Source: an uncultured Verrucomicrobiae bacterium (lineage in GTDB: Bacteria; Verrucomicrobiota; Verrucomicrobiia; Limisphaerales; Palsa-1400). From it: a DNA stretch of 64,000 nucleotides. Position numbers and translations under genes: made by a program. Under the pieces are notes generated by a model, which saw only the letters and a program-made list of their open reading frames with translations, was not told where the DNA came from and did no database searches. Below, piece after piece: positions 26,241-51,666 of the stretch (position 1 is its first letter; every line of letters starts with the position of its first letter). The stretch spans positions 1 to 64,000 of the forward strand of contig CAVPOM010000010.1 of the NCBI GenBank assembly GCA_963707025.1. The letters are read 5' to 3'.

Positions 26241-26268
26241 AATGGCAGTCCGTGCTAGAAGTTCAGGG

Positions 26269-27179: not shown

Positions 27180-27180
27180 A

Positions 27181-29843: not shown

Positions 29844-30086
29844 GCTTCGGTCTGTGGTCGGCGAGCGGGGAAAGTGGAGCGGAGGGCGGAGACTGAGCGT
29901 TTAGCGAATCGCAGCCGGAGCGCAACGTCCCGCCGCCGAGCCGCAGACGGAAGCCCGCCGCTCATGCGGCAATGCAAATGCCGCTCGTGACGAGCGCGCG
30001 GTTTGCGGAGTGGAACGGGCGTCGTCGAGAGGGGGACAGGGACGACGGGCAGCCCGTGGAGCGCAGCAAACCGCGCGTTGGTCACG
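29844..30086. repeat. ~245-bp double-hairpin dispersed repeat, copy 1
   Basis: GCTTCGGTCTGTGGTCGGCGAGCGGG...CCCGCCGCCGAGCCGCAGACGGAAGC, then CGTGACGAGCGCGCGGTTTGC...GCAAACCGCGCGTTGGTCACG; homologous copies at 35584 and 51406. Confidence 0.9.
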
Positions 30087-30960
30087 GCGGATTCGGCGTA
30101 TGCTTCCCAACGAGAATTGCTTCTTGCTCCAAGCCCGCATTTGATTCGTCCATCATGGCGACGACTTGTTGAATCGTCGGATGGTTGGATTTGCGAAGCT
30201 CCATGAGCATCCGTTGATTTTTGACATCTCCAAGCAATGCGCCTTTAGAATGGCTGCGAAACAGTGCTTTCAAGTTGTTCGGAGTAAAAAGCGAAACGGC
30301 TTCGCCAATTCGTTCATAAAGACGGAGAAATTCCGTAAGACCGAGCGGGTCGTAATCAGGAAGGTGAAGAATTTTCAATCCGGCTTTGGCATTGGAAGCA
30401 AGCCAAGCAAGAAATCGGTTTGAGCAGCGTCCGCCTGTGTAAATCGCCAGAGAAAATTCCAGCCCCAAACTTTCAAACGCATGGAACACCGCCGGGTTTT
30501 CAACAAGCAAACATCCACCCCGCAAAGTGAACGGCGTTTCGTCGGTAAGCGCGAACGCGAAAACACCATTCTCTTCAGTTGAGCGCGTTGTCTCAACGGT
30601 GATGCCATCGCGAAGCAAAATTCCGTCACGCTTGCTTCGGATCCAAACGATCTCCGGCAGGTTGCTCGGGAGAGCCTTTGTGTCGCGGAATTGTGCAACC
30701 GCGAGAACTCGGCTTGAATTGGAATTTTCATCGAGCGGTGTGTCAGGAAAGTGTTGTTGAAACCAGCGTTGAAATCCGGGCGGGTTTAGAACCACAAGCC
30801 GCTGTCCTCCTGCTGCCTTTTCGCGGCGAATGACTTCACTATCAAAGAGCGGTTTGAGCGCAATTACCAGCGATCTTCCACAGGCCGAATAAGGCAATAC
30901 ACCCTTTTGCAGAAGCTGACGACATGCCCCGCGATGCTTGGGCTGAATTTTGAATTTCAT
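30082..30960 (-). CDS. jetD: Wadjet nuclease JetD/MksG (TOPRIM)
   Basis: LLVENP and HLPDYDPLGL TOPRIM motifs, LEQE; ATGA overlap with the SMC gene. Confidence 0.85.
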   Translation of the reverse strand: MKFKIQPKHRGACRQLLQKGVLPYSACGRSLVIALKPLFDSEVIRREKAAGGQRLVVLNPPGFQRWFQQHFPDTPLDENSNSSRVLAVAQFRDTKALPSNLPEIVWIRSKRDGILLRDGITVETTRSTEENGVFAFALTDETPFTLRGGCLLVENPAVFHAFESLGLEFSLAIYTGGRCSNRFLAWLASNAKAGLKILHLPDYDPLGLTEFLRLYERIGEAVSLFTPNNLKALFRSHSKGALLGDVKNQRMLMELRKSNHPTIQQVVAMMDESNAGLEQEAILVGKHTPNPP

Positions 30961-33677
30961 GTTTCGCGGGACTCGGCTTTGGGCTTTAGGCTCAAGCGCT
31001 GGACATCTGTGAGCACAACGCGGCCACGGCTGTTTGGTTCGAGAAAATAGCACGCGTCCACCTCGCCAACTGCGCTTGGCGCGGCGGTAATGGCGATGAA
31101 ACCAAGTTTTTTCGCCGTTTGCAGAACTGCACGACGATTTGTGGGATCGAGCTTTTCCACTTCGTCCAAAAAGAACGGGATGGCAACATCGTCTTTATGC
31201 AAAAGACTTTTTAGGACGAGCAGGTTGAACAGCACTTTGATGGTTACGGTCGTTCCATCTGATTCGACCTGGTGGAAGTCGGCATATTTCTTGGTCTTTC
31301 CGTCGGCCCTCGTAACGGTTACGCCAAGGGTGAACAGGTCGGCGATTCGCGTGATTGGGTTTCGCTCCATTTTCGTCCGCACGCGATCAAAAACCCGGTC
31401 AAGCGAAGTCGTGTCATCCATCAGGTTCAGCTCATCAATGGCAGCAAGGCGTTCGATTAACGAAACCTCGTCAGATTGACGTTCAACCGTAAGCTTGACT
31501 GCCTTCAAGTCTGAAACTTTCACATGAGCCAGTTCCCGGTTCAATTTGTCCTTGGCGCTTTCCACCAATCGCAAGTCGTGCAACACCGCGTCGAAATTGC
31601 TTTTCAGCCCGTGGATATGGCTGTTCCATCGGAGTTGCAGCGCTTCCTCGCGCTTTGGCAAAGCGTCGAGTTCTTGTTCCAGGGCGCGAATGGTTTCCGC
31701 TTCATTGTTGCTTTTGTAGCGGTCTGCAAAGACGCCGAGCCTTCCAAATGTCGAGTCCAACTGGCGGGTGAGTTCTGACTGCTTGTCGTAGTCGTGTAGA
31801 TAATAGGAAACGGCGCTGTCGAAATCGGTTGGGATTTCCGCGTCCGCTCTCGGACTGGCATTGAAGATGGCAATTTTTCTGTGACATTCGTCGTAGCGTT
31901 TCAAGACTTGCCGGTATTGGTTTTCAACATCCGCCTTTTGATTCCCGAATTTGATGAGGTTTTCGCGTTGGCTTTGTTGCGCAGTATCCAAATCTGCGAT
32001 TGTCTTACCTATTGCAACGATTGACGCTTCAAGTGCCGCAACCTTACCGCGCCATTCCTTTTCGCTGGCAAGGTCTCCCTGGAATTGCTTGTAGGCCGAC
32101 AATTTATCCGTTTGCGTCTGCTTGTCCGCCTTGAGCTTTTCAATTTTGCTCGTAAGTTCGTCGCGCTTCGTCACCGCCTCTAACAAGGCAGTCAGGCGCA
32201 CGACCTCTTTCTTTGCTCGATCCAATTCTTTTTCCAGCGTCTCGACGTTTTCAAATCTGGCCAACAAATCGGGCTGCGGTCCAAGGCGGATTGTCATGGA
32301 ATCATCCTGATAAACACCCTCTGAAACCCTTCCCGCAAGTTGTCTCAATCTGACGACAACGTCTTTTTGGTTTGTGAAAGTGATGCCATTGCGTCCAACC
32401 GGCAAACCCAGGAGGTCTGGATTCAAAACGCCGAACAATCGTGATATTTCCTCGTCGGTGAAGTGCTCGCGTAGGGATGTTACGGCCAGCCGGCTAAATT
32501 GCTGAATCGAAGCGCTAGTAGTTGTGACTTTGCTTTCGGCGGCGACAAGCTGGTTCCTGACCGAATCAACGGTTTCGTTAGAAGCCTCCTGCTGACGAGT
32601 GAGCAGACTGTTAAGCTGGCGCTCGATGTTTTCCAGACCGGCCTGTTCCAATGAAAACGAAAATGCCGAGTAGAACTTCTTGTGCTTATCCAAATCGTCC
32701 AGCTTTGCTTGGATTGGGGACTGCTCGCGCAGCAACTGTTTTTCTTCATCCCGCTTGGTTTTGAGGGAGGCCCTGGCTTTTGCTTCTGCGCCGGTCGCGC
32801 TCTGGATGTTCTCATCCAGGGCTGCGATTTGCTGTGAATGGCATTCATCAAACGCCTTTTTTCGCGCTTTCAGATTTTCCCACCGGTAGTTGATTTGACC
32901 CCACAGCACTTGGCGGTCATTGAAAACTTGGATCAATTGCTGCACTTCCTGTTGGTGGGACTTGAATTGTTTGAGATCGTCGCGCTCCCGCCTCAATTGC
33001 TCGTATTCTTCGCCGAGAATGCGACGCGCATCAACGGCAACATAATCGGTCGGTAAATCCGCCAGCATCAAAAGCCGTTCTCGCATCTGATCCTGCGTAA
33101 TGTTGGCGAGGTTGAGCAGATTTTTGAGCGTGTCGCGGAAGTCAGAGAATTTTTCCCCATCCTTTAGGGCGACAATTCCCAAGCCGTTGCTGCGTTGCCC
33201 CACACCGGATAACAGAACCGCGCGGTGTTCCGCCGGTTTATTGAGCAGTTGAAAATCCTTCTCGGCAAGCAACGCGCTGATTTCTTTGGGATGACGAATC
33301 CGCCCATCGTCACCGAGAAAATGCTCTCGCTGGAATGGGCCAAGGTAAAAGAATCGTTCGGGGTCTGCCCCGGATGTTTTGCTCGCTCCACGCCAGCCAA
33401 TCACGGCCAGTCCACGCAAAGTCTGACATTCAAAGAGCACATAGCTGTGCTCGCTGCTGAAGTAATAATCCAGTGTTTGGTCAAATGTGTAACCCTCAAA
33501 CGTCATGCGTGACCGCTCGTCAATGTAGAGGAATTGAAGGGTGTTGATCAGTGTCGTCTTGCCGGAATTGTTCGGCCCGACAATTTGAATCGCACCATCA
33601 AGCAAAACCTCGGCATACTCATACTTGCCTGCATTGATGAGGATGATTTTCTTGGGGCCGTTACGCATTGGCGTCAT
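30957..33677 (-). CDS. jetC: Wadjet SMC-like ATPase JetC/MksB
   Basis: Walker A GPNNSGKTT, long coiled coils, signature ESDGTT, Walker B FFLDEVEKLD. Confidence 0.9.
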   Translation of the reverse strand: MTPMRNGPKKIILINAGKYEYAEVLLDGAIQIVGPNNSGKTTLINTLQFLYIDERSRMTFEGYTFDQTLDYYFSSEHSYVLFECQTLRGLAVIGWRGASKTSGADPERFFYLGPFQREHFLGDDGRIRHPKEISALLAEKDFQLLNKPAEHRAVLLSGVGQRSNGLGIVALKDGEKFSDFRDTLKNLLNLANITQDQMRERLLMLADLPTDYVAVDARRILGEEYEQLRRERDDLKQFKSHQQEVQQLIQVFNDRQVLWGQINYRWENLKARKKAFDECHSQQIAALDENIQSATGAEAKARASLKTKRDEEKQLLREQSPIQAKLDDLDKHKKFYSAFSFSLEQAGLENIERQLNSLLTRQQEASNETVDSVRNQLVAAESKVTTTSASIQQFSRLAVTSLREHFTDEEISRLFGVLNPDLLGLPVGRNGITFTNQKDVVVRLRQLAGRVSEGVYQDDSMTIRLGPQPDLLARFENVETLEKELDRAKKEVVRLTALLEAVTKRDELTSKIEKLKADKQTQTDKLSAYKQFQGDLASEKEWRGKVAALEASIVAIGKTIADLDTAQQSQRENLIKFGNQKADVENQYRQVLKRYDECHRKIAIFNASPRADAEIPTDFDSAVSYYLHDYDKQSELTRQLDSTFGRLGVFADRYKSNNEAETIRALEQELDALPKREEALQLRWNSHIHGLKSNFDAVLHDLRLVESAKDKLNRELAHVKVSDLKAVKLTVERQSDEVSLIERLAAIDELNLMDDTTSLDRVFDRVRTKMERNPITRIADLFTLGVTVTRADGKTKKYADFHQVESDGTTVTIKVLFNLLVLKSLLHKDDVAIPFFLDEVEKLDPTNRRAVLQTAKKLGFIAITAAPSAVGEVDACYFLEPNSRGRVVLTDVQRLSLKPKAESRET

Positions 33678-34257
33678 CCTCGCTTTCCTTTGCCGGATTC
33701 AGACCTAAATTTTGAACGGGGCTTATTTCGCTTGCGGCTTTTCCAGATTGTTCGGCCAGTTCGAGGCATTTGCTCAACATCCGGTGAAACGGTCGTAAAA
33801 ACCGGAACTCATCTTCGGCAACCCATTTTGCCCAGCCCACATTCTTGAGGTAATGAATGACCTCCCGTAATCCGGCGTAATCGGTGATTCCGACTTGTTC
33901 GAGCCTTGCACGGTAGCTGTCCAGAGTGAAGTGAGGAAGCCCGCGAAGCGTGAAAGTTTCCGAAAAAAGCGTTGGCTCGACCGGTAATCCGCGATTGGCA
34001 ATGTGATCAATCAAAATAAATGAAAACACCGCGATTTTTGCCAGACGCGGGGAAGCAGTATCCTCTGCTTCGGGTTCAAAATAGAAAAAGTCGTGCTCGT
34101 GTTTGTGCAGCGTAAAACCAAGTCCAGCGAAATAATCGGCGTAATCGTCATAACGCTCACCGTTAAGCGCGGCGTAAATCGCGTCGTCCTCCGGCGAAAT
34201 GTGGTAGCCATTTTTCAGTTTTTCAAAGATTTCCCGAAGCTGATCTGGATAATTCAT
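33661..34257 (-). CDS. jetB: Wadjet KITE subunit JetB/MksE
   Basis: IFEKLKNGYHIS...YFAGLGFTL...FFYF...FLRPFHR; size and position fit. Confidence 0.82.
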   Translation of the reverse strand: MNYPDQLREIFEKLKNGYHISPEDDAIYAALNGERYDDYADYFAGLGFTLHKHEHDFFYFEPEAEDTASPRLAKIAVFSFILIDHIANRGLPVEPTLFSETFTLRGLPHFTLDSYRARLEQVGITDYAGLREVIHYLKNVGWAKWVAEDEFRFLRPFHRMLSKCLELAEQSGKAASEISPVQNLGLNPAKESEDDANA

Positions 34258-35552
34258 TTTGAGATGGCTTCCAATCGCACAGGTTGAGCGCAAATCACAT
34301 GATGGGCTGTTTCGTAATCATGTATTTTTGCAGGCGTGAAACGGGCGCGGAAATGCTCGTAGAAAAACAGTGTTGAAAAGCCTGCCAATAGCTGCGGCGT
34401 GTCGAATTCGGGGTAGCGGGTTGTGAGCCAATCAAGCAGGTCGCTGACTGGAAGGTCTTTGGCAATTTCGTCCGGCAAGGTATTGAGCCAACGACGATGC
34501 TCCAATGCCGCAGAGGTTTTTCCGTCATGGCCAAAAGAGATTGCCGGTGGCGGGACGGGAGGATTATTTAACAAGCGCTCAATCGCGCCAATAATTGCTT
34601 TGTCGCTGAAAGCCCCTTGGTGCCGGAGCGTGAAAATCCCGACAACTGATTGTTGCATCCATTCCTCGAAATTGCCTAGCCGAAGACGATCCAACGCGTA
34701 AGCCGCGCCGGTGGCGAGATTGCTCGAACGGGCAAGGGATTGGTAGAGAGGGGAGATTTCTTTGCCGGATTGCTCAAAGACGTTAAGGGCGTGTCGCCTT
34801 GCAAGCCGGAGCAAGCGCAGATTTCTTTCCACCGTGCCGACCGAAATCACCAGGAGATTTACGCTGGCGTGTTCCAGCACCTCTTCGACTTCGGCAAACG
34901 TCGCTTGCATCGCTCCGTTAACGCGGATTACGTCAATCATCGGCGCGATGTATTGCTGCATCCACCAGACGATGCGCTGGTATTTTTCTCGGACTGATGC
35001 CGGCCGCTTGTCGGTTTTGAAACGCGCAACTTCGCCAAGCACGCTGACATGCGTAGCAGCCACGTCGTCGTGCAAGCGTCGCAGCGTTTGGGTGATGTCA
35101 CCCAGCGCCAAGTCGGCGATTGTCGGGTCGTCTGCGTTCAGCGCGCCGCGTAGTGTCTGTGCGAGTTTTTGAAGTTCATTGACGTAGCTCTGGACGGTTT
35201 CCGCCGACGCCGGTTTTGCTTCCTCCAACAAATAGCGAAGAATTCCCCGCACGGGTTCGGCCATCAGGAAATACTGCTCGGATTGATCTGCCGAAACGAG
35301 GATGCGGAGTTCCTTGAGACGTTTGACCAAGAAAGCAGGCTGCTCCTCCACGTCCGCTGCGTGGATTTTTGCGATTTCGTCAATTTCTGATTCAGAGAGG
35401 TCAGTTCCACTGGCCCGCTGCTCCAGTTCGCGCAACAAGCTCACATGCTTGGCGCAGAACTGAAAAAATTCTTTTGGTGGAACAATCACAAGTTTCCAAA
35501 ATGTTCGATCAATTCTAGCGAATGGCCTTGGACAAATACAGTCCAACCTCAA
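34254..35552 (-). CDS. jetA: Wadjet kleisin JetA/MksF
   Basis: ~420-aa helical protein first in a four-gene overlapping operon (YIAPMIDVI); exact start uncertain. Confidence 0.8.
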   Translation of the reverse strand: MRLDCICPRPFARIDRTFWKLVIVPPKEFFQFCAKHVSLLRELEQRASGTDLSESEIDEIAKIHAADVEEQPAFLVKRLKELRILVSADQSEQYFLMAEPVRGILRYLLEEAKPASAETVQSYVNELQKLAQTLRGALNADDPTIADLALGDITQTLRRLHDDVAATHVSVLGEVARFKTDKRPASVREKYQRIVWWMQQYIAPMIDVIRVNGAMQATFAEVEEVLEHASVNLLVISVGTVERNLRLLRLARRHALNVFEQSGKEISPLYQSLARSSNLATGAAYALDRLRLGNFEEWMQQSVVGIFTLRHQGAFSDKAIIGAIERLLNNPPVPPPAISFGHDGKTSAALEHRRWLNTLPDEIAKDLPVSDLLDWLTTRYPEFDTPQLLAGFSTLFFYEHFRARFTPAKIHDYETAHHVICAQPVRLEAISK

Positions 35553-35583
35553 ATCACAAAAACAGGCGGTTTGAAAACAAAAC

Positions 35584-35829
35584 GCTTCGGTCTGCGGTCG
35601 GCGAGCGGGGAAAGTGGAGCGGAGGGCGGAGAGGAGCGTTTAGCGCATCGCAGCCGGAGCGGAACGTCCCGCCGCCGAGCCACAGACGGAAGCACGCCGC
35701 CCTCGCGGCCCATTGCGAATGCCAGCTCGTGACGAGCGCGCGGTTTGCGGAGTGGAACGGGCGTGGTCGAGAGGGGGGAAGGGGCGGCCGGCAGCCCGTG
35801 GAGCGAAGCAGAACCGCGCGTTGGTCACG
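35584..35829. repeat. ~245-bp double-hairpin dispersed repeat, copy 2
   Basis: Same orientation and arm sequences as copy 1. Confidence 0.9.
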
Positions 35830-35862
35830 AGCGATGAAACCAGCGTGCTTAAACACCCATGC

Positions 35863-37464
35863 TTATTCCTTGGCTCTCCTTTGGGTGTTAAAACGGTGCG
35901 CGGTGTCTTTCCAGAGGTCCAGCAGATCGGTGATGGGCGTGGTGAAGACTCGCTGAACGCGGGGCAGGACATCTTCGGACGGGATGAGTTCGGCGGCTAT
36001 GCGCTTGTCCTGCGGTTCGTCAATCTCGGCAACGAGCACACCGCTGCCGCTTTTTTCGTAGAAGTCCGAGCGATTCTTTTTGGATTCCGGACTGATGAAA
36101 GTATCGTGCAAAGGATGCTGGGACACGCGCTTGCCCACTTTGGCGTCGGCTTCGGAATAGGGCAGGACGCGGGCTTGGTCGGGGCGGACCTGGAGAACTT
36201 GCTCGAAGAACTTGAGAATACTTCCCATGGTATCCGGTGGCGCGTAATAGCCGGGCGCTTCCTCCATTCGAGCGGCTTCTTTGCTCTTGGCGACCGCGAA
36301 GGTTTCCCGCTCCCAAGCGAAGCGGGCGTCTGCGGGAGTGCGATTGTTTGCCGGAAAAACCACTGCTTCGGTCTGCAAATATATCTGATAAAGCGGGTCC
36401 ACCGTTCCATCCACCTGAACGGATTGGTTGCGGGCCGTGGGGAATTCAAAATCGAAGACGTCGGCGTTGCGCCCGGACCAAGTTGTAACTGATGAAGCGC
36501 TGGCACGACGGCCCTGCTGCATCGCGGTCAGCTTGGTCTCGTCGAAGATGATGGCCCGGAAGCCCTCCATGGGCGAGGGAGCGGAATTATTGCCCGCCAG
36601 TTCGGAATTCGGGCCAGCCACACTGGAGGTTCTCCGGCACTTCAGGATGACGGGCTGGTCAGCGGCAGCAAGGCTGGCACGTGAATCCCAGACGAGGACC
36701 AGCGCCTCATTGGTGTCGTAAACTTGCCGGCCTTCGCGCTCATCAAGTGCCTGCATGTAAATCCCGGCATTTTGCAAATTCAGCCAATCGGAGGGTTGCG
36801 GCGGTGTTTTGCAGACTGCCAGGAGGACGGTGATTTCCTTCACGGGCGAGTCTGGAGCGCGTTTGCACACCTTCTGAACCCACTGCTGGAATGCTGGTTC
36901 TGAGGCCGGAGTGGCGGGATAACACGCGGGGGAATTCCAAGCGTCCAAAAGATGGCGATTCACCTCGGCGGGCAGGGAATTCCCGATGCCATCAAGGTGC
37001 TCCGGTTCAAAATCGAATTCGAGCCGTAACGACGCTTCCGCGTTACGAGGGCTGGAAGGCCCGAGCGCGCGGCCCGTCCAGTTGTGGGAGCCGATGTAAA
37101 CCACCGACTTCCGCTCGCGTTCGAGATAGAGGTAAACCAGTTTGGAGTGAAAGAGGGAGATGGCCGGTTCGTCGTCGGGCTTGATCACAGGATCCATGAA
37201 GTATTTGAGGCGAACCGGTGTGCTGGCGCCGAGTTCCAGTTGCAGGTTAAGCAACGGTTCGTAGCTGCAAGCGCAGGAGATACTGCCGACGCCAAATGAG
37301 CGCGGATCGCGCAGCACCTTATGGAACAGCGGGCGATTGATGGTGTTCAGTCCCTCTTGGGAAATGTAGGCGACCATGAAGCGGCACACCGTGGCCTTGG
37401 CCATGTCCTGCCGGAGCAAGTTGCGGTATTCGAGTGAAACCAGTTCTTTGCTGAGCAGTTTCAT
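35863..37464 (-). CDS. PLD-superfamily nuclease-domain protein
   Basis: MVAYIS, FHSKLVY, YIGSHNWT and NAEAS in the N-terminal ~170 aa; the C-terminal part is unassigned. Confidence 0.75.
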   Translation of the reverse strand: MKLLSKELVSLEYRNLLRQDMAKATVCRFMVAYISQEGLNTINRPLFHKVLRDPRSFGVGSISCACSYEPLLNLQLELGASTPVRLKYFMDPVIKPDDEPAISLFHSKLVYLYLERERKSVVYIGSHNWTGRALGPSSPRNAEASLRLEFDFEPEHLDGIGNSLPAEVNRHLLDAWNSPACYPATPASEPAFQQWVQKVCKRAPDSPVKEITVLLAVCKTPPQPSDWLNLQNAGIYMQALDEREGRQVYDTNEALVLVWDSRASLAAADQPVILKCRRTSSVAGPNSELAGNNSAPSPMEGFRAIIFDETKLTAMQQGRRASASSVTTWSGRNADVFDFEFPTARNQSVQVDGTVDPLYQIYLQTEAVVFPANNRTPADARFAWERETFAVAKSKEAARMEEAPGYYAPPDTMGSILKFFEQVLQVRPDQARVLPYSEADAKVGKRVSQHPLHDTFISPESKKNRSDFYEKSGSGVLVAEIDEPQDKRIAAELIPSEDVLPRVQRVFTTPITDLLDLWKDTAHRFNTQRRAKE

Positions 37465-37466
37465 GG

Positions 37467-40466: not shown

Positions 40467-40484
40467 AGATTTAGTCCAAAAAGA

Positions 40485-41510: not shown

Positions 41511-41532
41511 GATCAAGTTATTTTAATGCAGT

Positions 41533-42087: not shown

Positions 42088-42092
42088 AAAAT

Positions 42093-44021
42093 CTAGGATG
42101 TTTGGCCTGCTTCCGTGGCGCACTTCGCGGTTGGTTTGCCAGAACCGGTTGGCACGAAGCCTTCCTTGCGCATCCATTCGAGAGCTTTGCGCCAGCGCGA
42201 TTCCGGCACTTGTTTTTTGCGGTCGTGCCAGCGATGCAAAATCTCGTGGACGATGGCGTCGTCGGTGACGGTCTTGCGCCAGATGAGGAGGTCGTTCCAC
42301 GCGGCGTAGGCGGTGGAGAAGATTTCGCAACGTTCCGTGTCCCAGGAGCGCATCAGATCAATGATCCGCTGAATGACAGGCAGCTTGTCTTGCCAATACT
42401 TTTCGACGTAGGCGCGGTGTCCGCCCGCCTTTTCCAGCGGGCGATAGCCGTGGCCGAACTTCTCTCGCGCGTATTCAGCAAACCACTTTTGTTTCTTCAA
42501 CTCGGCCTCGACGGAATAAATGAGTTTGTTGTCCAGCGGGCCGGCGGCTTCGCGATGATATTCGCCTTGGATTTCCTCGATGCCGCCGATGTATTCGCAG
42601 AGGTGGAGGATCTTCTGGTGCTTGATTCGACCGAACGTCGGCTCAGTATGGAGTTGATGCACGATTTCGGCGGACAGCAGAGCGCGAGCAAAATGGCGAT
42701 TGGGACGCGGGAATGAAACAACTTCGACCGACGTTTGCCGCACGTCCATCTTGCCAGTGACGGTGGCGGCGATAAGCGCGGTGCGGTATTCCTTCATCAG
42801 CTCGATTTCCTGTTCGGCGGTAGCGATTGCTGTGGCGACGTTCTCGGATTGCCCGGCGATAAATCTGACGATCGCGTCCTGTTCCTCGGGGGGTGGAAAT
42901 ACGGAGGGAAGGCGTCCAAATGCATCTGCGTAGAGGCGCAAAAAACCTTCGACCATGCCGGTTGATGACGTTTTGAAAGAAGCAACGAACGCTCCCGTGT
43001 GAAAAAGATGATCGTAATAGTTCACATTGAGGCGCACGCGCGGTCGGAGCACCGTATAATCCGGGCTCACAAGTCCCCTCTGCTTCGCGACAGCAAAAAC
43101 CCCTATGTGCGCTTTCAACTTGTTCAGCACCAAGTCGCCAATGTCGCAGATTTTGCAACCCTCAAAGGTGGCGGATTGTGTCGAACGCTCTTGCATTTCT
43201 GACGTGGGAATCAACCCGTGCTTTTGGCTCATCGACAGCTTGGTTTCCAAACCGGTTTCAGACCGGTTGTTAATTTCTCGAAACAAATGCTTGTTTCTGA
43301 TGATCTGCCAATGATTCGGGATGTCCCCGACGAAGGGGATGCCAGATGGTTTACGTGGCGCGTTGGGATTGATCCCGCGCATAACGACGCGGCTAATCAG
43401 CGCAGTCCTTTGTTCCTTGAGCAGCTCAATGATGCGCTGCTTGTTGGTGATGAACGATTGAATCTCCCGTTCAGTCGCTTCAAGGAAAGCCACGATAGCG
43501 TCTTGTTGCGATAAGGGAGGCTCAGGAAACACTGCCGAACTTAGGTCATGTTGGGACAAACCGTAACGCGTGATACCGTTCGCCGCCACGTGGAATTGTT
43601 CTCTGATTCCAGAAGCCATGAATGAGTAAGTGAGAAATTTTCCATTTAGTGCTGCTGGTTTTGGACGGACTTGTGCAAGATGGTAACCGCAAATGACGCC
43701 TTCGAGATCGGCAGGAACATATGCAGGAACAGCAATGTCGTTCCACATTTCCGAGTCTTTCGTTACCAGGACATCACCCGCTCGCAGCGCAAACTTGGCA
43801 ATTTCATCGGGCGTTGCTGTAGCGGGCATGAAATCAAGGTCGTGCGTGATTTTCTTGTTGTAGTAGACATCCGTGTAGTTGCAGAGCCGGATTGGAATCT
43901 CCTCAGCTTCGGTGTTTTTGTCCACGTTGCTGAATTGGAGGGAAGCCAAATACTTTAGCTTTTTCGCCTGCCAGCCGGTTGGCATTTCCGTTTTCCAAGA
44001 ACTGTGGGAAGATACGGTCAT
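42093..44021 (-). CDS. hsdS: Type I RM specificity subunit S with extra C-terminal domain
   Basis: Two TRDs with PPLSQQDAIV and PPPEEQDAIV conserved regions ending ATVTGKMDV, followed by ~210 extra residues. Confidence 0.9.
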   Translation of the reverse strand: MTVSSHSSWKTEMPTGWQAKKLKYLASLQFSNVDKNTEAEEIPIRLCNYTDVYYNKKITHDLDFMPATATPDEIAKFALRAGDVLVTKDSEMWNDIAVPAYVPADLEGVICGYHLAQVRPKPAALNGKFLTYSFMASGIREQFHVAANGITRYGLSQHDLSSAVFPEPPLSQQDAIVAFLEATEREIQSFITNKQRIIELLKEQRTALISRVVMRGINPNAPRKPSGIPFVGDIPNHWQIIRNKHLFREINNRSETGLETKLSMSQKHGLIPTSEMQERSTQSATFEGCKICDIGDLVLNKLKAHIGVFAVAKQRGLVSPDYTVLRPRVRLNVNYYDHLFHTGAFVASFKTSSTGMVEGFLRLYADAFGRLPSVFPPPEEQDAIVRFIAGQSENVATAIATAEQEIELMKEYRTALIAATVTGKMDVRQTSVEVVSFPRPNRHFARALLSAEIVHQLHTEPTFGRIKHQKILHLCEYIGGIEEIQGEYHREAAGPLDNKLIYSVEAELKKQKWFAEYAREKFGHGYRPLEKAGGHRAYVEKYWQDKLPVIQRIIDLMRSWDTERCEIFSTAYAAWNDLLIWRKTVTDDAIVHEILHRWHDRKKQVPESRWRKALEWMRKEGFVPTGSGKPTAKCATEAGQTS

Positions 44022-46159
44022 GCCTCTTCCTCCGCCGTTAGGATGATTTGTTTTAGCAGACCTTCTGTTTTCTTCTCAAGGTTCACCAAGTCGGTGGTTA
44101 TATCGGCGAGTTCACGGAGTGGCTGGTAACGGTAGAAAAACTTTGGGAAAGAAACCTCGTAGCCCTTTACGGTTTTCTTCGGGTTGATCCATGCGTCGGA
44201 GACGTGCGGCAAGACTTCACGTTTGAAATAGTCCGCGATGGTGTCCTTGAGCGGCACGTTCTCGTGGTCGCGGAGTTCAGGGTCAGGCTCGTAACGAACG
44301 TGACCGCCCTCTGCTTCAAACAATCCTTCGTGCCGCGCTTTTTCCCAATCGTAATCCGGCGGAATGTCGAGCAGCATCGGGCCTTCGGCGATGACGGGTT
44401 TGGCCGTCTCATCCCGTTGGCAGAAACCATCGCGGAACAGCCGCTCGCGTTTGGCGTTCAGTTTCACGCCCCGTTCCTTGGCTTTGGTTTTCACCTCGCC
44501 CCATGCCAAATTGAAATCGTCAAACATGGCCGGGCCAGCCTCCTTGAAAACGGCTTCGATCAGTTTGAGGAAAGCGTCGTCGTCAGCTTCGGCGCAGGCC
44601 GGGCGGAAACGTTTCATCCCGGCGACGGTGAAATCCACACGCAGGCGCAACGGTCGTTCGACAGTGATTTGCCAGTAGCCGAAATCGGCATTGTCGAAAA
44701 TCTTGGACTGCTCCGTTTCCTTGAAATCGAGGAAAGTGCGGATGATCTGGTCAATCTGCTCGTCGCTGAACTTGCAGTTTTTCTGGCCGAGATTCTTGCG
44801 CAGCTTGGTGAACCATTGCGTGGCGTCAATCAGTTGAACCTTGCCGCGCCGGTTCTTCGGCTTCCGGTTCGTCAGCACCCAGATGTAGGTGGCGATGCCG
44901 GTGTTGTAGAACAGGTTTTCCGGCAGGCCGATGATGGCTTCGAGCCAGTCGTTTTCCAGAATCCACTGGCGGATGTTGCTCTCGCCCTGGCCGGCGTCGC
45001 CGGTGAAAAGGGCCGAGCCGTTGTGGACGGTCGCGACGCGGCTGCCAATGGGCGACTTGGGGTCGTCCTTCATCTTGCTGAGCATGTTCGCCAGGAACAT
45101 GAGCTGGCCGTCGCTGGAGCGGGTGACGAGGGAAAATTCGTTGTTGCCGTCGTGACTGACGACGAAGCGCGGGTCGCGCATCTCGCCCTTGTCGCCGCCG
45201 CAAAGCCGGTCGAGGTCGGTTTTCCAGCTTTTGCCGTAGGGCGGATTGGCGGCCATGAAGTTAAATTGCAGCCGTTGGAAGGCATCGGCGCTGAGGGTCG
45301 AGCCGAACGCGATGTTGCCTTCGTCCTCGCCTTTGATGAGCAAGTCGGCTTTGCAGATGGCGTAGGTTTCCGGGTTCACCTCCTGGCCATAGAGATGAAT
45401 GCTCACGTCCTTGCCGAGTTCCTCGGCGATCTGGCGGAGCATGAAATCGAACTCGGTCAGCATGCCGCCCGTGCCGCACGTTGGATCGTAGAGCAGATAC
45501 GTGCCGCTGGTGATCTGCTTCTTGATGGGCAGCAAAATCAGGCCGCCCATGAGATGCACCACGTCGCGCGGTGTGAAGTGTTCGCCAGCTTCCTCGTTGT
45601 TTTCCTCACTAAACCGCCGGAGCAACTCCTCATACACGGCGCTCATGCCGTGATTCGTCAGGCCGGGCAACCGCTCCTTGCCCTCGCCGTCGAGGACGGG
45701 CTGCGGGCTGAGGTTGATGTCGGAATCGAGAAACTTGGTGATGAGATGGCCAAGCACGTCGGACTCATCGAGTTTCTTGAGCTGGTTGCGGAAATCGAAT
45801 TTCTCAATGATCTCGCCGACGTTGGGCGAAAAGCCGTCGAGGTAATCGGTGAAGTTGGCGCGGAGTTGCTTGGGGTTGTCGAGCAGGCGGCGTAGTGTGA
45901 ACTGCGACGTGTTGTAAAATGAATGCTTGGAGATTTTGCGGAGCGCGGCTTCTTGATGGGCAATCTTCGCCTTGTCGAGCTGTGCCTTCATTTTGAGCAC
46001 AGCCTCCTTGGTCGGTTCAAGCAGGGCGTCGAGGCGGCGAATGACGGTCATCGGCAGGATGACGTCGCGATATTTGCCGCGCACGTAAACGTCGCGGAGC
46101 ACGTCGTCGGCGATGCCCCAAAGGAAACTGACGATACCGTTGTGTTGCGTGGGGTCCAT
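44018..46159 (-). CDS. hsdM: Type I RM N6-adenine methyltransferase subunit M
   Basis: GEHFTPRDVV, YDPTCGTGGML, NPPY, LFYNTGIATY. Confidence 0.96.
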   Translation of the reverse strand: MDPTQHNGIVSFLWGIADDVLRDVYVRGKYRDVILPMTVIRRLDALLEPTKEAVLKMKAQLDKAKIAHQEAALRKISKHSFYNTSQFTLRRLLDNPKQLRANFTDYLDGFSPNVGEIIEKFDFRNQLKKLDESDVLGHLITKFLDSDINLSPQPVLDGEGKERLPGLTNHGMSAVYEELLRRFSEENNEEAGEHFTPRDVVHLMGGLILLPIKKQITSGTYLLYDPTCGTGGMLTEFDFMLRQIAEELGKDVSIHLYGQEVNPETYAICKADLLIKGEDEGNIAFGSTLSADAFQRLQFNFMAANPPYGKSWKTDLDRLCGGDKGEMRDPRFVVSHDGNNEFSLVTRSSDGQLMFLANMLSKMKDDPKSPIGSRVATVHNGSALFTGDAGQGESNIRQWILENDWLEAIIGLPENLFYNTGIATYIWVLTNRKPKNRRGKVQLIDATQWFTKLRKNLGQKNCKFSDEQIDQIIRTFLDFKETEQSKIFDNADFGYWQITVERPLRLRVDFTVAGMKRFRPACAEADDDAFLKLIEAVFKEAGPAMFDDFNLAWGEVKTKAKERGVKLNAKRERLFRDGFCQRDETAKPVIAEGPMLLDIPPDYDWEKARHEGLFEAEGGHVRYEPDPELRDHENVPLKDTIADYFKREVLPHVSDAWINPKKTVKGYEVSFPKFFYRYQPLRELADITTDLVNLEKKTEGLLKQIILTAEEEA

Positions 46160-46385
46160 TATGAGCAAAGGAGAAAAGTGTTGCCGCCGCGCCGCCGCAG
46201 TTGCTGCCGCCCGCCAGTCGGAAAAGATGTGGTCGCGTTACCCATGACAAAGAGTCCAGTGAGTATGCTCAACACGGCACGAGTTGTCACGATGGGAACA
46301 CAGGCCAGCCAAAGGCGGGGGACGGGCCAATGGCCAGCGTCATGGCGCGAAGCGGAGGTCGCTCCGGTGACGACAAGCGCGAAGG

Positions 46386-48011
46386 CTACATGTAGAACTT
46401 GTATTTCGTCCCGGGCTGAACGTCCTTCGGAAGTTCAGTCAGGATTTTTCCAACGTCACGCGCGAATCGGATGGTGATGGGAATGCCACTGCCAAAGGCA
46501 CAGCTATTCCAATTGAGCTTGGTCAGGGCGAGAATTTCCTGGCAGACCGTCACTGCCGGAGAATCACCGTGATGTTCGATCACCTCCAAGGGGCGAGGGA
46601 TGCGTTTCCCCGGATAGCTTCTCAGATAGGGAACGTAGCCGTTGCAATAGATGAGATAATTTCGCCGCCCGAGTTGAATCACTGTTCCCCGCAGTGGCGG
46701 CCTTTTACCCACCCGCATGAAGCGAGTCTCGCGGGATTCCAAGGCAAGAAAGTCGTAGTAGTAGATTCCCGCGAGCGCCTTTCGCATCCCTCGCAGTTCT
46801 TCCGGCCAGTAACGGGAAGTCTTGTGAACGACGACGCGCTTGGGCGGCGCATTGTGCTGAAGCGTGTAGGACTGAATGGCGCGCGCGAGAAGTTTCTCCG
46901 CGCCGTCCTCGCTGAGATGGGGTTTGCGATCACGCTCCTTGTTGAACACGGCTTTCTCGCCTTTGAGCACAATGCCTTCGCCCGCACCGAATACCTGCGC
47001 CAGGCTGGTTTGCATGTCCGCTCCGATGCGCGGGCTTTCCTTGAAGAACGAAATGCCGACGTAACAGGTGTTGTCGGGCAGCGATTGCAGTCGCCACGGA
47101 TTGTTTCCGGCTTTGTAATAGAGCGCGGTGAAAAGATTCCATGCCACGGAGGCTGGGTTTGAATCCTTCAGAGTGCTTTCCCACACCACCTGGGTTGTGA
47201 AGCCCGTTCGCATGGCGTGGGCTTTGAGCGCATGATGGATATTGAAAAAACCATTGTGGGACGAAGAATCCGTCTGGTCCGTCGTATCGAAGTCCAGCCC
47301 GAGAATCGTCTGTCCGGTTGCGGCCGCTTCGCGCTGCAATGAGCGCTGGAATCGTTGCTGCGGCGACAGGCGGACTCTCTGGCGTGCGAACACATCGCCG
47401 ATGGCAGCGCACGCCGCTTCAACCGAGGGCGGCATTACGAGAACAACGACATCAGGCGTCGGACTTAAATCTTGCAGGGCAGATAGCTGGTCAACGACAA
47501 GTTTCACAACGGCCTCAATCCGTGACTGTTCTTTGTGCTCCGCCGCCGCTCGCGCAAAAAGCTCCTCGTGGATGACTTTCAGGTGCGACGGATTATCGGC
47601 GACAAAGGATGCCCGGAATGTGTGGTCGGGGGAGCAGCCGGGGAAATCGGGGAAACAATGCGGATCGAGCGGCTTCCCGCGTGTGTTGAAACCGGCGGAA
47701 ATTCGGGACTGACATTTTTGGAGGAAATTGAGAAAGGTCTGAATCCCGTCACCTGTGCCAATCACCCCAAAGCGTATTGTTTTGATCGTCGCAGTCTGCC
47801 AGCCAAACGGCCCGTGACTTTCCAACCCGGCTTTCGGATCAACGGACAACAAGCCATCGCCAAAAACGAGCTTGGGCTCTTCCAGGTAAAACGCGCTGAA
47901 AGCAGGCGGGTTGGTGCGGATCAGTTCATCCAAGAATCTTGGTTTCCCATGTCCATCTCTTCGTTGCGAATGCGACCGGTGCGACGGCTTATTCAAACGA
48001 GGTGTCGTCAT
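46386..48011 (-). CDS. ago: Short prokaryotic Argonaute (MID-PIWI)
   Basis: LEEPKLVFG, GPF, ALYYKAGNNPW, CYVGISF, VVVHKTS, ILALTKLNWN, PITIRFA; no N/PAZ domains. Confidence 0.93.
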   Translation of the reverse strand: MTTPRLNKPSHRSHSQRRDGHGKPRFLDELIRTNPPAFSAFYLEEPKLVFGDGLLSVDPKAGLESHGPFGWQTATIKTIRFGVIGTGDGIQTFLNFLQKCQSRISAGFNTRGKPLDPHCFPDFPGCSPDHTFRASFVADNPSHLKVIHEELFARAAAEHKEQSRIEAVVKLVVDQLSALQDLSPTPDVVVLVMPPSVEAACAAIGDVFARQRVRLSPQQRFQRSLQREAAATGQTILGLDFDTTDQTDSSSHNGFFNIHHALKAHAMRTGFTTQVVWESTLKDSNPASVAWNLFTALYYKAGNNPWRLQSLPDNTCYVGISFFKESPRIGADMQTSLAQVFGAGEGIVLKGEKAVFNKERDRKPHLSEDGAEKLLARAIQSYTLQHNAPPKRVVVHKTSRYWPEELRGMRKALAGIYYYDFLALESRETRFMRVGKRPPLRGTVIQLGRRNYLIYCNGYVPYLRSYPGKRIPRPLEVIEHHGDSPAVTVCQEILALTKLNWNSCAFGSGIPITIRFARDVGKILTELPKDVQPGTKYKFYM

Positions 48012-49428
48012 CTTCTTCGTCTCCTTTGTCGGCGTCTTTGCCGTCGGTTTGAATTTCAATGGCAGCTTTTTCAAGGTCGGCGTCGTCCTGTGCCAATAGC
48101 GCCTTGATTCTGATTTCGTCAAAAGCAACGCCGCGATCCAACTGGGCCGAGGCTGGAATGGGACTGAGGATAATCGGCTTGTCGCCCGTCCTGATTCGGA
48201 TGGATTTTTCGTTTTCTGCGAGGACTGCGCCCCAGAACAGAAGATTCCGCAAGACATCCGGATTTTGTTGTCGACCGCCCCAAAGCAGCGAAAGTTTGCC
48301 CGCGTTCTTTCCAGCAACTGTCAGACTGCCGTCACTGGTAAAAAGATAAAGCGGTTCGACCGACAGAAAGAGCTTTTCACCCACCCGTTTGAATTTGATG
48401 CGCGCGGCATGATGAACCCAAAAACTGGTCAGTGTGGCTGGGTTTTCCTTCTTGGCAGCAACCGTCCGGGCTCGTCCCTCCCGCATTTGCCACTTCCGCT
48501 CGGTGTTGTCCTTGCCGGGAGTGAAGAAGAAACGCCCTTTGCCGTCCTGCTTGATGTGCTGCAACCAAAGGTGCTTGGACAAGCTCGAATTCAGCAGGGC
48601 CATGAGCCAAGTGGTCCTGTCGTCACGAATGAACCAGTCGTGGCGGGATTCAGGTTTTCCGATGGTGTTAGCATCAACCGCCTCTCTCAGTCGGGTTTCA
48701 GGTGCGCTGAGGTTGGCAAAGGTGTAGAGGCGCTTGTCGCGCAAAATAAACGGCTCGGCCTTGGAAACGACTTCCCAAACCTCCTTCTTTTCCCGGAATT
48801 TTGTGGCGGCGCTCCAAATCTGGCTGGGAAGCGCAACCACGGGGAACAAGTTTGAAAGCAACAGATCCGCCACGTTGTCCGGCAACCAGGAAACTTCAGG
48901 TTGCGCTGTGACGGGTAAAATCGGAGCGCTCGCAGCCAGCGGCGGAAGCCTGCGCCCCCGCTCCTGCGGCAGATTCCGAACCCGGCGAATCAACTCGACG
49001 AAACCTCTTTTGAATTCGCCAGGCTTGCGGCAATCAATGTAACGCAAGTCACGGAATGGGGCGCACAAATCAATGCGTTCTCCGCCATCCGCGCTTCGAT
49101 CCCGAAGCAGGATTGGAATGAGGCGTCCTTGAGAATTGTTTGGGTCTTGAGCAACGATGTGTTTCCACTCGAAGCGTGGCCAGTCGGCTTTGAGGAATTC
49201 AGGCGACAGCACCGCGATGACATGCCGCGCGGACTTCATGCCTTCGTTCATCCGATCAATCAGGCTTTGTCCGGGTGCAATGTCCCATTTATCGAAGAAT
49301 GCCGTCAGGTGGCGCGATGCCTCGTTTCCGTCAATGGTTTCCGACTCGATTTGCTCGGCCAGACGCTTGACCCAATCGAGGTCCGCTCCGTTGTAGCAGA
49401 TGTAAACGTCCTTCTGTTCCATGCTCAT
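47989..49428 (-). CDS. TIR-APAZ protein (SPARTA partner)
   Basis: DVYICYNGAD, FFDKWDIAPG, LSPEFLKADWPRFEW TIR motifs with catalytic-position Glu; LLLSNLFPV starts an APAZ-like domain; overlaps the pAgo start. Confidence 0.9.
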   Translation of the reverse strand: MSMEQKDVYICYNGADLDWVKRLAEQIESETIDGNEASRHLTAFFDKWDIAPGQSLIDRMNEGMKSARHVIAVLSPEFLKADWPRFEWKHIVAQDPNNSQGRLIPILLRDRSADGGERIDLCAPFRDLRYIDCRKPGEFKRGFVELIRRVRNLPQERGRRLPPLAASAPILPVTAQPEVSWLPDNVADLLLSNLFPVVALPSQIWSAATKFREKKEVWEVVSKAEPFILRDKRLYTFANLSAPETRLREAVDANTIGKPESRHDWFIRDDRTTWLMALLNSSLSKHLWLQHIKQDGKGRFFFTPGKDNTERKWQMREGRARTVAAKKENPATLTSFWVHHAARIKFKRVGEKLFLSVEPLYLFTSDGSLTVAGKNAGKLSLLWGGRQQNPDVLRNLLFWGAVLAENEKSIRIRTGDKPIILSPIPASAQLDRGVAFDEIRIKALLAQDDADLEKAAIEIQTDGKDADKGDEEDDDTSFE

Positions 49429-49459
49429 CAAATGCCTCGGTGTTTCTATCACAACCAAA

Positions 49460-49885
49460 TTATTCCCTGTCGGGATTCGTTGACCCGGCCAGGTGTCCTC
49501 CTGCAAGAGCACCGATGAATGCGCCGACTGGTCCGCCTACGGCGAAACCAACCGCGCCGCCGCCCATTGCGCCGAGAATCGCGTTCTCCGTTTTCGCCTG
49601 TTTCCGTCTCTCCGGCGACAATGGTGCGCGAGTTTTTCCGTTCCAGCCGCGGGCGGTCCGGGTGGTTTTGTTGCTCTTGTCGCCGTTACAGGTCACACAA
49701 GCGGCAAAGAGATTGTTGGGGTGGTCTGTGCCGCCTTTGGAGCGGGGCACGGAGTGTTCGACATGCCACGCGCCTCGCTTTCCCGGTTGCCCGTAATTCT
49801 TGAGGGATAGTTTCGCGTGACACAAATGGCAGTAGCCGCAGGTGCGCCGATAAATGCGGGTCAATACCTGTTGGTCGAATGGCAT
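49460..49885 (-). CDS. HNH endonuclease with C-terminal glycine zipper
   Basis: CHLC, WHVEHSVPRSKGG, NNLFAACVTCNGDK; tail GAMGGGAVGFAVGGPVGAFIGALAGG. Confidence 0.85.
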   Translation of the reverse strand: MPFDQQVLTRIYRRTCGYCHLCHAKLSLKNYGQPGKRGAWHVEHSVPRSKGGTDHPNNLFAACVTCNGDKSNKTTRTARGWNGKTRAPLSPERRKQAKTENAILGAMGGGAVGFAVGGPVGAFIGALAGGHLAGSTNPDRE

Positions 49886-49890
49886 AAGTG

Positions 49891-50112
49891 TCAGCCTCTC
49901 GGCGGGAACGGATCGTTCCCATAACTGTTCTTGTCGCGTATCTTGCCGTCCTCGCCGTGGATGACGACTTCACTGCGTTGGTTTTGCGCAATTTCGCGAG
50001 CCCGTTCAATAGCTTGGTGCTGCGTCGGATGAACTGATGTGTCGCGGCTGTTGCCTTCGCCAACCACTGCCCATCCACCCGTTCTTTTGACTACATGTTG
50101 ATTGATCTTCAT
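49891..50112 (-). CDS. DUF2188-family small protein
   Basis: QHVV...GGWAV...TQHQAIERAR...EVVIHGEDGKIRDKNSYGNDP. Confidence 0.85.
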   Translation of the reverse strand: MKINQHVVKRTGGWAVVGEGNSRDTSVHPTQHQAIERAREIAQNQRSEVVIHGEDGKIRDKNSYGNDPFPPRG

Positions 50113-50218
50113 GATGATGTTTCGTTTGTTCTCGCTTCCTCGTGCGACTCGCAGAAGAAAGCACTTTTTAATCTTTCGGTGGAAGAATACGCTGGGGACT
50201 GAGACATCCGCTGTCCCT

Positions 50219-51223
50219 GTGAAAAAAAAGTCGAAAATAATTCAGGCAATCGCCACGCGGCCTCAAGTGGAGCGGATGCACGCCATTATCCGTCGGATTC
50301 AGAAAGGCGATTACCCAAGCAGACCGGTTTTGGCCGAGGAGCTTGGATGGACCACCAGAACGATTCAGCGGGACATTACCTTCATGCAGAATCGTGAGGG
50401 AATGCCGATTGAATACGATTTCTCCCGACACGGCTATTATCTCACCGAAAAGTTGGCGGACTTTCCGCTCCTCCAGATTTCGGAGGGTGAAATTGTGGCC
50501 TTGTTCGTGGCCCAAAGAGCGATGGCGCAGTATCGAGGAACTCCATTTGAGCAACCGCTTCGGGTTGCGTGTGAAAAGCTGATGGAGGGGTTGAAAGGGC
50601 AATTCTCCGTCGCCTGGGGCGATTTGGACTCGGCTATCTCGTTTCGGAATATCGAGACGAACCCGGTGGACATCAGGATATTCAAAGACTTGAGCTTTGC
50701 GGTGCAACACAGCCGAGAAGTGGTTTTCGACTACTGCAAGCTGGGCACAAAGAGCTTTGAAACGCGCAATCTCAGGCCATACCACCTGACTTGCATCAAT
50801 TACCAGTGGTATGTTCTCGGGCACGATACACTGCGCAAGGAGGTGCGCCGTTTTGTTCTCGGAAGGATGCAGTCGCTGCGCGTGCTCGATACGACATTCT
50901 CCCGTCCAAGAAACTTTTCGGCCGACAAGTGTTTGAAGGGCAGTTTCGGCGTGTTCTCAGGCGACAAGCCAATTGAAATCCGGATTTGGTTCAGCTCGTT
51001 CGCGGCGCGTCTGGTGCGGGAACGACAGTGGCATCATTCGCAAGAAATCAAGCAACTGGCCGATGACGAAATCGAACTCCGGCTCACACTCACGAGCATA
51101 GTCGAAGTATCGCAGTGGATTTTGAGTTGGGGAGATCACGCAAAAGCCCTTGCCCCGGTGGAGCTTGTTGATTCCATCACAAAAACACTCCGCGAAAGCA
51201 TCAAGCGCTACGGTGCGGCCTGA
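50219..51223 (+). CDS. WYL-domain transcriptional regulator (wHTH-WYL-WCX)
   Basis: LAEELGWTTRTIQRDI, RNLRPYHL...WYVLGHD...RRFVLGRM, WILSWG; probable GTG start at 50219. Confidence 0.92.
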   Translation: MKKKSKIIQAIATRPQVERMHAIIRRIQKGDYPSRPVLAEELGWTTRTIQRDITFMQNREGMPIEYDFSRHGYYLTEKLADFPLLQISEGEIVALFVAQRAMAQYRGTPFEQPLRVACEKLMEGLKGQFSVAWGDLDSAISFRNIETNPVDIRIFKDLSFAVQHSREVVFDYCKLGTKSFETRNLRPYHLTCINYQWYVLGHDTLRKEVRRFVLGRMQSLRVLDTTFSRPRNFSADKCLKGSFGVFSGDKPIEIRIWFSSFAARLVRERQWHHSQEIKQLADDEIELRLTLTSIVEVSQWILSWGDHAKALAPVELVDSITKTLRESIKRYGAA

Positions 51224-51405
51224 CTTGCGTTTCATCAGATAATCCTCCGCCAGCGATTGAACCATTTTGCAATCGTCCCGTCCGACTCCAGTGGCGGCAG
51301 GGTCACGCGCCGGAAGGGAGGCACGAGCGAGGTTGTGCTTTGTGCGGCGGCGACCACCGTTGCTCCGGCCTCACGGATCACGTCCACGCAGTTGTATCGG
51401 CCGTG

Positions 51406-51648
51406 GCTTCGGTCTGCGACCGGCAAGCGGGGAAAGTGGAGCGCAGGGCGGAGAGGAGCGTCCAGCGAATCGCAGACAGAGCGCAACGCCCGCCGCCGAG
51501 CCGCAGACGGAAGCCCGCCGCGCTTGCGGCGCTATGCGGATGCTCGCTCGTGACGAGCGCGCGGTTTGCGGAGTGGAACGGGCGTGGTCGAGGGGGACAG
51601 GGCCGACCGGCAGCCCGTGGAGCGCAGCACAACCGTGCGTTGGTCACG
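51406..51648. repeat. ~245-bp double-hairpin dispersed repeat, copy 3
   Basis: Same orientation and arm sequences as copies 1 and 2. Confidence 0.9.
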
Positions 51649-51666
51649 GCGGCGCTGATTAAATCG

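Follow-up and report, generated by a model that had tools for sequence, protein, structure and literature searches.

A one-way hairpin repeat of TrwC-type islands, a candidate single-strand origin at the borders of exchanged defense modules

What is a long hairpin repeat doing at the borders of complete defense systems? The question is raised by 64,000 nucleotides (the window: positions 1 to 64,000 of contig CAVPOM010000010.1, assembly GCA_963707025.1) from an uncultured bacterium of the Limisphaerales lineage Palsa-1400. A preliminary description of the window noted three direct copies of a double-hairpin element of about 245 bp delimiting defense modules on an integrative and conjugative element (ICE), and envisioned either capture sites for whole modules or a structured RNA or single-stranded DNA (ssDNA) signal. 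With confidence only slightly better than even, we favor reading the element as a conserved hairpin repeat that points one way in TrwC-type islands and is likely a second-strand priming signal (a single-strand origin); its copies probably let homologous recombination swap the blocks between them.

The three copies in the window are diverged repeats on the same strand (+) in unrelated flanks, as first described (pairwise identity 87.8-90.7%, E<1e-82; coordinates in the table). The modules that they were said to bracket are indeed there, a Mks/Wadjet operon between copies 1 and 2 and the genes from a PLD-like nuclease through a WYL regulator between copies 2 and 3, and the jetD stop codon (30082-30084) does lie inside copy 1. 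In the 6.96-Mb genome from which the window comes, a profile search returned one further, diverged copy (G000:C7:499141-499357, E 5e-10), adjoining a second TrwC gene and an integrase, and nothing else under E 0.5. All four copies are thereby confined to two islands rather than scattered genome-wide near housekeeping genes. Repeat searches here and below used profile hidden Markov models, which very diverged copies may escape.

Beyond this genome, the element was found in 14 of 61 relatives and, within the order, in 46 of 401 genomes (threshold E<=1e-15, no more than two candidates scored in each); 300 genomes from elsewhere in the phylum gave none. Among the matches listed, the named records that contain true copies are mostly Verrucomicrobiota, several of them labeled Limisphaerales; the few metagenome-assembled genomes labeled otherwise among these matches may be mis-binned. 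Searches of IMG/VR, PLSDB plasmids and INPHARED phages gave no element match or chance-level matches only, and literature searches, with most subscription papers outside their reach, found no description of the element or its islands.

The element is part of MOB-F (TrwC) conjugative and mobilizable islands. An island backbone gene is present in the stretch examined at 61 of 75 nonredundant loci of at least 10 kb, and the TrwC family occurs in 35 of 46 element-positive against 48 of 355 element-negative genomes, counts in which kin are not independent. Gene maps, from a simple gene caller, are approximate for small genes and starts. In ICE-type islands the first copy usually comes right after a MORN gene or a YhcG gene, and further copies stand within the cargo, before the coupling protein or beside the integrase; in mobilizable islands a shorter copy adjoins trwC together with ParA-like and small StbA-like genes (the StbA-like label comes from one Atlas cluster, 0.91, 13% of members). 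Concerted evolution within islands is weak, the nearest relative of a copy lying on the same locus in 8 of 64. Some of the islands (L085, L099, L128, L198 and G207:C2) also have a gene for a PurA-like ssDNA-binding protein, placed between trwC and the integrase and in many cases to the left of an element copy.

Cargo changes abruptly at these copies. Islands sharing 200 bp on one side of the element were compared across it, after removal of 32 duplicates from the 168 loci used for exchange and polarity counts, and homology broke off in 677 of 689 comparisons anchored on the left and in 83 of 95 anchored on the right (760/784; mean 0.98, 94 elements). In controls of equal width, breaks numbered 221/550 and 178/494 at cargo gene junctions (399/1044; 0.46), 106/218 and 83/193 at cargo operon boundaries (189/411; 0.56), 441/822 and 438/837 at backbone-cargo junctions (879/1659; 0.63), and 1111/4918 and 1113/5006 within the backbone (0.31); in none of these tallies are the pairs independent. 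Cargo in related genomes thus differs precisely at the repeat boundaries, the pattern that had been proposed for checking.

The 56 intervals between consecutive copies run from 11 bp to 37 kb, and four blocks recur bracketed by copies in unrelated neighborhoods (eight pairs). The Wadjet block of the window is bracketed also in G052:C454 and G207:C2 (one copy partial in the latter), an AbiE block in G034:C39, L091 and G281:C9, a Lamassu block in L194 and L223, and a HipA block in L235 and L238; such recurrence in unrelated contexts supports cassette-like exchange. Also found between copies are Hma, a second Wadjet type, Kiwa, Hachiman, a class II Argonaute, a type II restriction-modification (RM) system and a SIR2-STAND protein, as well as nondefense genes for an ABC transporter, a DinB-type polymerase and a sensor kinase. 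Among 73 representative bracketed proteins, 50 have no PADLOC match at 1e-15, including four Mks/Wadjet proteins that other libraries name. The early suggestion of capture sites for whole defense modules can therefore be kept in part: whole multigene modules are exchanged, while site-specific capture is not borne out and the cargo is not only defense.

Where within the element the exchange occurs bears on its mechanism, given that cutting by a single-site enzyme would make flank-sharing copies change allegiance at one position. In 13 recombinant triplets the breakpoints fall at element positions 0-17, 0-131, 26-120, 29-91, 34-72, 39-68, 58-156, 97-212, 134-189, 181-240, 187-218, 191-232 and 212-245, and change points range from 25 to 245 in 54 left-sharing pairs and from 0 to 241 in 32 right-sharing pairs (pairs not independent). 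Crossovers spread over the whole element in this way fit general homologous recombination. Chimeric copies with mismatched hairpin B arms also occur (L023/L127). A crossover cluster in hairpin B, suggested by early triplets, did not hold in the larger set. Repeat-to-repeat joints were sought in assembled contigs only, where a single contig holds one copy 2-to-copy 1 joint (88% likeness), explainable by another copy; in an RNA library, eight loose ends at 30090 are likewise explained by other copies in the community.

The fold of the element is conserved. Both long stems of the preliminary description are found in each copy, and the inner-stem variants that it quoted are present in the sequence; to these is added a third, small hairpin between them (element positions 114-127). 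The + strand of copy 1 folds at -82 kcal/mol (z -5.7, 0/200 shuffles as good) and the - strand at -72 (z -4.5), also far better than shuffles. On 57 aligned copies with a hand-drawn structure of 74 pairs, 92.2% of cells are paired, compared with 28-42% for slid-partner controls, which were put at a disadvantage because the structure had been drawn from copy 1 and the consensus. Compensatory change is seen in 40 of the 74 pairs against 19.2 in shuffles (0/500 as high), and covariation, which the preliminary description had proposed as a check, supports the fold. No Rfam family matches the element at gathering score, the only matches being at chance level (E 3-10) and none plausible; a match to a known family would, by the preliminary description, have told against its reading.

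Loop, mismatch and strand counts were taken from 189 copies under 95% identity. A near-invariant G-G mismatch lies near the base of both long hairpins (positions 6:106 and 149:237), and the internal loops consist of G-N-A opposite G-N-A, in which N varies and G and A are mostly conserved at 90-98%; for the five loops counted, GNA stands on both sides in 156-170 copies. From DNA and RNA structure work we take these GNA/GNA loops to be tandem sheared G-A pairs. Among non-Watson-Crick stem cells, G-T outnumbers A-C by 962 to 228 (266 to 26 in another count), and this excess, together with the loops so read, makes the + strand the likely folded one; it is also energetically the better strand in 216 of 218. 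Internal deletions in four loci lose a hairpin apex and retain both outer arms, as would be expected of slippage on a single strand that is folded. Only 61 of the 189 copies have a six-base ssoA loop motif in the loop of hairpin A, and it was not used.

Hairpin B is also the target, in five other loci, of a group II intron family (RVT_N-RT-maturase, about 502 amino acids, no HNH domain found), inserted at about position 218 on the minus strand. The carriers are L046 (G034:C75), L063, L194, L114 and L301, and in G034:C75 the element is split cleanly. A different intron lies within hairpin A in L103.

Orientation, too, is fixed. Copies are direct in all 42 multi-copy loci (98 copies) and never inverted; TrwC is encoded on the folding strand in 23 of 23 cases, and the opposite strand encodes VirB4 in 29 of 29 and the coupling protein in 16 of 16. 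ICEs and mobilizable islands also share an oriT-like motif, located in the interval from the StbA-like gene to trwC and made up of a short hairpin with covariation and, after it, a tail of some 12 conserved bases. With a profile made from 23 pattern hits, the motif was recovered in 41 of 66 relaxase loci (in the ICE of the window at C10:89441-89509), with the best match on the relaxase sense strand in all 41; the other 25 gave no match, some of them from short or interrupted stretches. The informative point is the order of hairpin and then tail, because the pattern had been drawn from the relaxase sense strand. Since MOB-F relaxases bind a hairpin 5' of the nick site, nic (bioRxiv 10.1101/2022.06.02.494495), the folding strand would be the transferred strand (T-strand), with the relaxase entering first, and it is from this arrangement that we infer the + strand to be the T-strand.

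The element itself was considered as oriT or relaxase target and set aside: the oriT-like motif is separate from it, and the profile gave no match at element positions in the stretches searched. A search for oriT directly upstream of trwC in ICE-type loci failed, the motif turning up further left, and in several ICEs kilobases of cargo lie between motif and trwC. The geometry of the motif appears inverted relative to R388, with stb-like genes 5' of the predicted nick. In L222 and L396, the hairpin B intron family is also found inside the conserved tail, on the plus strand near the expected nick. A conserved palindrome about 55 bp upstream of ICE-type trwC (L374-L397) is probably an operator over the trwC promoter.

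By analogy, these properties suggest that the element is most likely kept by selection as a strand-specific signal on transferred DNA, with priming as its most probable role. The element would fold on the + strand, this would be the strand transferred, and the fold could then be read by host RNA polymerase, primase or primosome. As in single-strand origins, orientation is fixed with respect to the transfer machinery and an extensive intergenic secondary structure is conserved; of the functions first envisioned, an ssDNA signal is the best supported. Exchange would proceed by general recombination among 245-bp copies that are 70-90% identical, and might be favored by the arrival of a single-stranded island where a relative is already resident, or by pairing of two copies within an island. 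The repeated copies would supply the only homology at cargo borders, acting as homologous recombination hubs.

Both halves of this proposal have relatives among known systems. The single-strand origin (sso) sso1 of ICEBs1, rolling-circle sso and ssi sites resemble the element in being intergenic and orientation specific, with three stem-loops and a place on a conjugative element, and redundancy of single-strand origins within ICEBs1 is known (PMC4595007). Different here are the absence of sequence likeness in plasmid and phage collections, the GNA/GNA zipper, and the two to three similar direct copies per island that bound cargo blocks; activity of the present element is predicted. For exchange, the PeSL cassettes of T4-like phages show how a conserved functional repeat can serve as homology for module shuffling, with varying crossovers and no dedicated recombinase (PMC2839356), and recombination between CUP repeats of IncN plasmids rearranges their region (PMC5371602). 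Here, too, cargo changes at the repeat and crossovers vary. PeSLs are described as promoter-terminator units of about 100 bp around single small phage open reading frames (ORFs) (PMC2839356), whereas the element is a 245-bp fold of single-strand type bounding ICE-borne multigene systems that reach 16 kb or more.

Several observations weigh against this proposal. Many of the nonindependent pairs in the exchange comparison share the MORN flank, and the Wadjet block is without a right-hand copy in three of six loci (L214, G393:C20 and L097). A clear copy is present in only 6 of 40 relaxase-centered stretches (about 10 kb left, 5 kb right), and ICE L379 has no element at the usual position. As to the strand, the energy difference is weak evidence because a G-rich strand folds better by G-T pairing alone, and it is the opposite (-) strand that received the group II intron of hairpin B. 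The stb genes of R388-type plasmids are situated 3' of the nick and are the first to enter (PMC3098194), and the relaxase is usually the last, in lagging position (PMC11541004); here the stb-like genes are left of oriT, and R388-type geometry would make the other strand the T-strand. Finally, of the six triplets analyzed first, four had their breakpoint in hairpin B's right arm, and successive exchanges could blur a fixed crossover site.

This last point leads to the attC sites of integrons, and to the possibility, which we consider distinctly unlikely, that the element is a dedicated single-stranded recombination site at which a tyrosine recombinase or TrwC cuts, excising and inserting modules. 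Were it so, the repeat would be an integron analogue for multigene defense systems and a new class of ssDNA site (two hairpins, invariant G-G mismatches and sheared G-A zippers): TrwC or a short tyrosine recombinase would recognize the site on the T-strand, excise or capture blocks of up to 16 kb or more, and general recombination would later blur the crossover. The strand that folds in attC sites serves as template for most cargo genes, and the same holds for the element. Also like attC and CALIN arrays (PMC2727003, PMC5027507), copies are direct, strand-asymmetric hairpins, with invariant mismatches, between exchangeable units; modules are bracketed in unrelated contexts, TrwC can recombine and integrate at oriT copies (PMC3264647), and breakpoints show some clustering at 187-245 and 0-25. 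Yet breakpoints span the element instead of marking one point, the core sites RYYYAAC and GTTRRRY are each found at element ends on 1 of 378 strands, no IntI exceeds the TIGR02249 cut-off in the genome, which is 88% complete (best 79.9 of 265 bits), and the oriT-like profile was not seen to match element copies. The preliminary description was right in seeing neither canonical attC ends nor IntI. The partner that it proposed, the integrase family of 5781-6857, is too widespread for a dedicated one, occurring in 202 of 401 genomes (a count that takes in the unpublished genome G334, which enters no other result), 40 of 46 element-positive and 162 of 355 element-negative, and is rejected in that role. 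Two long hairpins per unit and cargo with its own promoters and multigene operons further separate the element from attC. Stop codons abutting the element had seemed a cassette-like sign, but they match the convergent-gene control.

That same control bears on a regulatory role, either as a single-strand promoter for the left gene in the manner of Frpo or as an insulator against read-through in the manner of EGeRS1, which we regard as unlikely. Genes end close to the element from both sides (44/71 and 21/46 within 40 bp), though no more commonly than at ordinary convergent pairs (87/169 within 40 bp), and while the folding strand is the template for most neighbors, 46 of 118 left neighbors point toward the element and not away. 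The Frpo and ssi single-strand promoters of F and ColIb-P9 likewise have a predicted T-strand fold, sometimes next to an ssDNA-binding gene, and a PurA-like ssDNA-binding gene stands directly left of the element in three loci much as Frpo stands before ssb (PMC11541004). The element, by contrast, is not confined to a leading region, has 68% GC and no AT-rich UP element, and copy 1 contains no sigma70-like site or -35/-10-like boxes (the scan covered sigma70-type sites only), the left gene having a promoter of its own. EGeRS1 of pLS20-family plasmids is the closest regulatory analogue (PMC8708921, PMC6294495), being multi-copy, GC-rich and structured and blocking read-through (PMC8708921); with the CUP repeats (PMC5371602) it shares same-direction copies on conjugative elements. 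EGeRS1 and CUPs are found ahead of the leading region's establishment and anti-defense operons, the CUPs bearing promoters and repressor sites as well, whereas the element flanks defense and other cargo, often between convergent genes. RNA polymerase priming and promoter activity are not mutually exclusive. A structured noncoding RNA of the island, which we hold to be very improbable, would suit the covariation and the G-U/G-A-rich loops equally well, and contigs of one metatranscriptome library cover the element; these are contigs only, from a library that may hold DNA, and there is neither conserved room for a promoter nor a U-rich terminator next to the copies, the flanks being wholly different and neighboring genes starting or stopping only tens of bases away. 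A free-standing RNA gene would not be expected to keep one strict orientation to the relaxase, nor does Rfam recognize one. Hardest to credit is a selfish nonautonomous repeat (REPIN/MITE-like) landing in islands by chance: several intergenic copies per genome near stop codons could suggest it, but restriction to two islands in the own genome, inverted copies in 0 of 42 loci, the lack of a terminal inverted repeat spanning the unit and fixed positions relative to backbone genes speak otherwise, and no empty-site/filled-site pairs with target duplications were noticed, albeit without a systematic search.

The setting of the copies in the window is in keeping with their association with islands elsewhere. 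The window is the left part of an ICE, as had been proposed, with two tyrosine recombinases, a large helicase-methylase, AbiE and a type IV secretion cluster that ends in an AAA ATPase and a MORN protein; backbone of this type is the commonest left neighbor of the first copy in related ICEs. The ICE continues to about C10:93 kb with no further element copy, and its segment C10:86-93 kb encodes a coupling protein and a ParA-like ATPase as well as the TrwC relaxase, which is split. Gene labels given in the preliminary description hold in the main; the gene to the right of copy 3 encodes a Calx-beta/C39 protein and not a defense function. The PLD-like gene falls in Atlas NgoFVII/PLD clusters (0.95) and has no canonical HKD motif.

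Table. Features of the window (strand + is the strand as read).
Feature	Position	Strand	Remarks
Tyrosine recombinase	5781..6857	+	common island-integrase family, not IntI
ICE backbone: TrbI, VirB4 (frameshifted), VirB2 pilin, AAA ATPase, MORN protein	16874..27837	-	AAA ATPase on + strand
HNH gene left of copy 1	29332..29778	-	own sigma70-like promoter 29815-29787, outside element
Element copy 1	29844..30088	+	hairpin A, small middle hairpin, hairpin B
Hairpin A of copy 1	29844..29954	+	invariant G-G mismatch near base, then opposed GNA/GNA loop zipper with 2-3 Watson-Crick pairs between loops
Small middle hairpin of copy 1	29957..29970	+	missing from shorter copies of integrative and mobilizable element (IME) type
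Hairpin B of copy 1	29985..30087	+	invariant G-G mismatch, conserved G-T pair, two GNA/GNA loops; provides jetD stop codon
Mks/Wadjet operon (jetABCD-like)	30082..35552	-	between copies 1 and 2
Element copy 2	35584..35830	+	
PLD-like nuclease, type I RM (R, S, M, two unassigned ORFs), short prokaryotic Argonaute (pAgo), TIR-APAZ, HNH	35863..49885	-	
WYL/WCX regulator	50102..51223	+	divergent from defense operon, converging on copy 3
Element copy 3	51406..51650	+	
Calx-beta/peptidase C39 cargo gene	51721..54669	-	stop 70 bp from copy 3

Some further observations concern neighboring genes. Frameshifts split each of VirB4, the coupling protein, the ParA-like gene and TrwC (window 22369-25086 and C10:86-93 kb), reflecting either a decaying ICE or assembly errors. 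The ClpB-like AAA ATPase and the MORN-repeat gene (25585-27837) form a conserved convergent pair that ends the secretion cluster in these ICEs. Within the type I RM operon, the two unassigned ORFs occupy 40485-42330, and HsdS has an extra C-terminal domain. A separate hairpin (51659-51700) between copy 3 and the stop of the Calx-beta gene is probably that gene's terminator. The recombinase family of 5781-6857 scores far under all NCBIfam cut-offs and often lies beside a small gene (F29). Elsewhere in the genome are three tRNA gene clusters of 5-11 genes each (C2:106-112 kb, C8:72-82 kb and C4:150-154 kb), typical of mobile elements.

Each ingredient of the proposal has precedent; what stands out is the combination, a structured T-strand repeat bounding whole defense systems, together with the G-A zipper. 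The swapping of complete multigene defense systems in ICE hotspots has so far been mostly unexplained, and a conserved cis-acting repeat at module borders offers one way in which Wadjet, Lamassu, AbiE, HipA and others could move as blocks without an integron integrase. As many bracketed genes have no PADLOC or Pfam match, the repeat is also a direct marker for mining new defense modules. For the lineage itself, whose conjugative elements appeared in no literature found, it provides a candidate single-strand origin whose G-A zipper fold is unusual.

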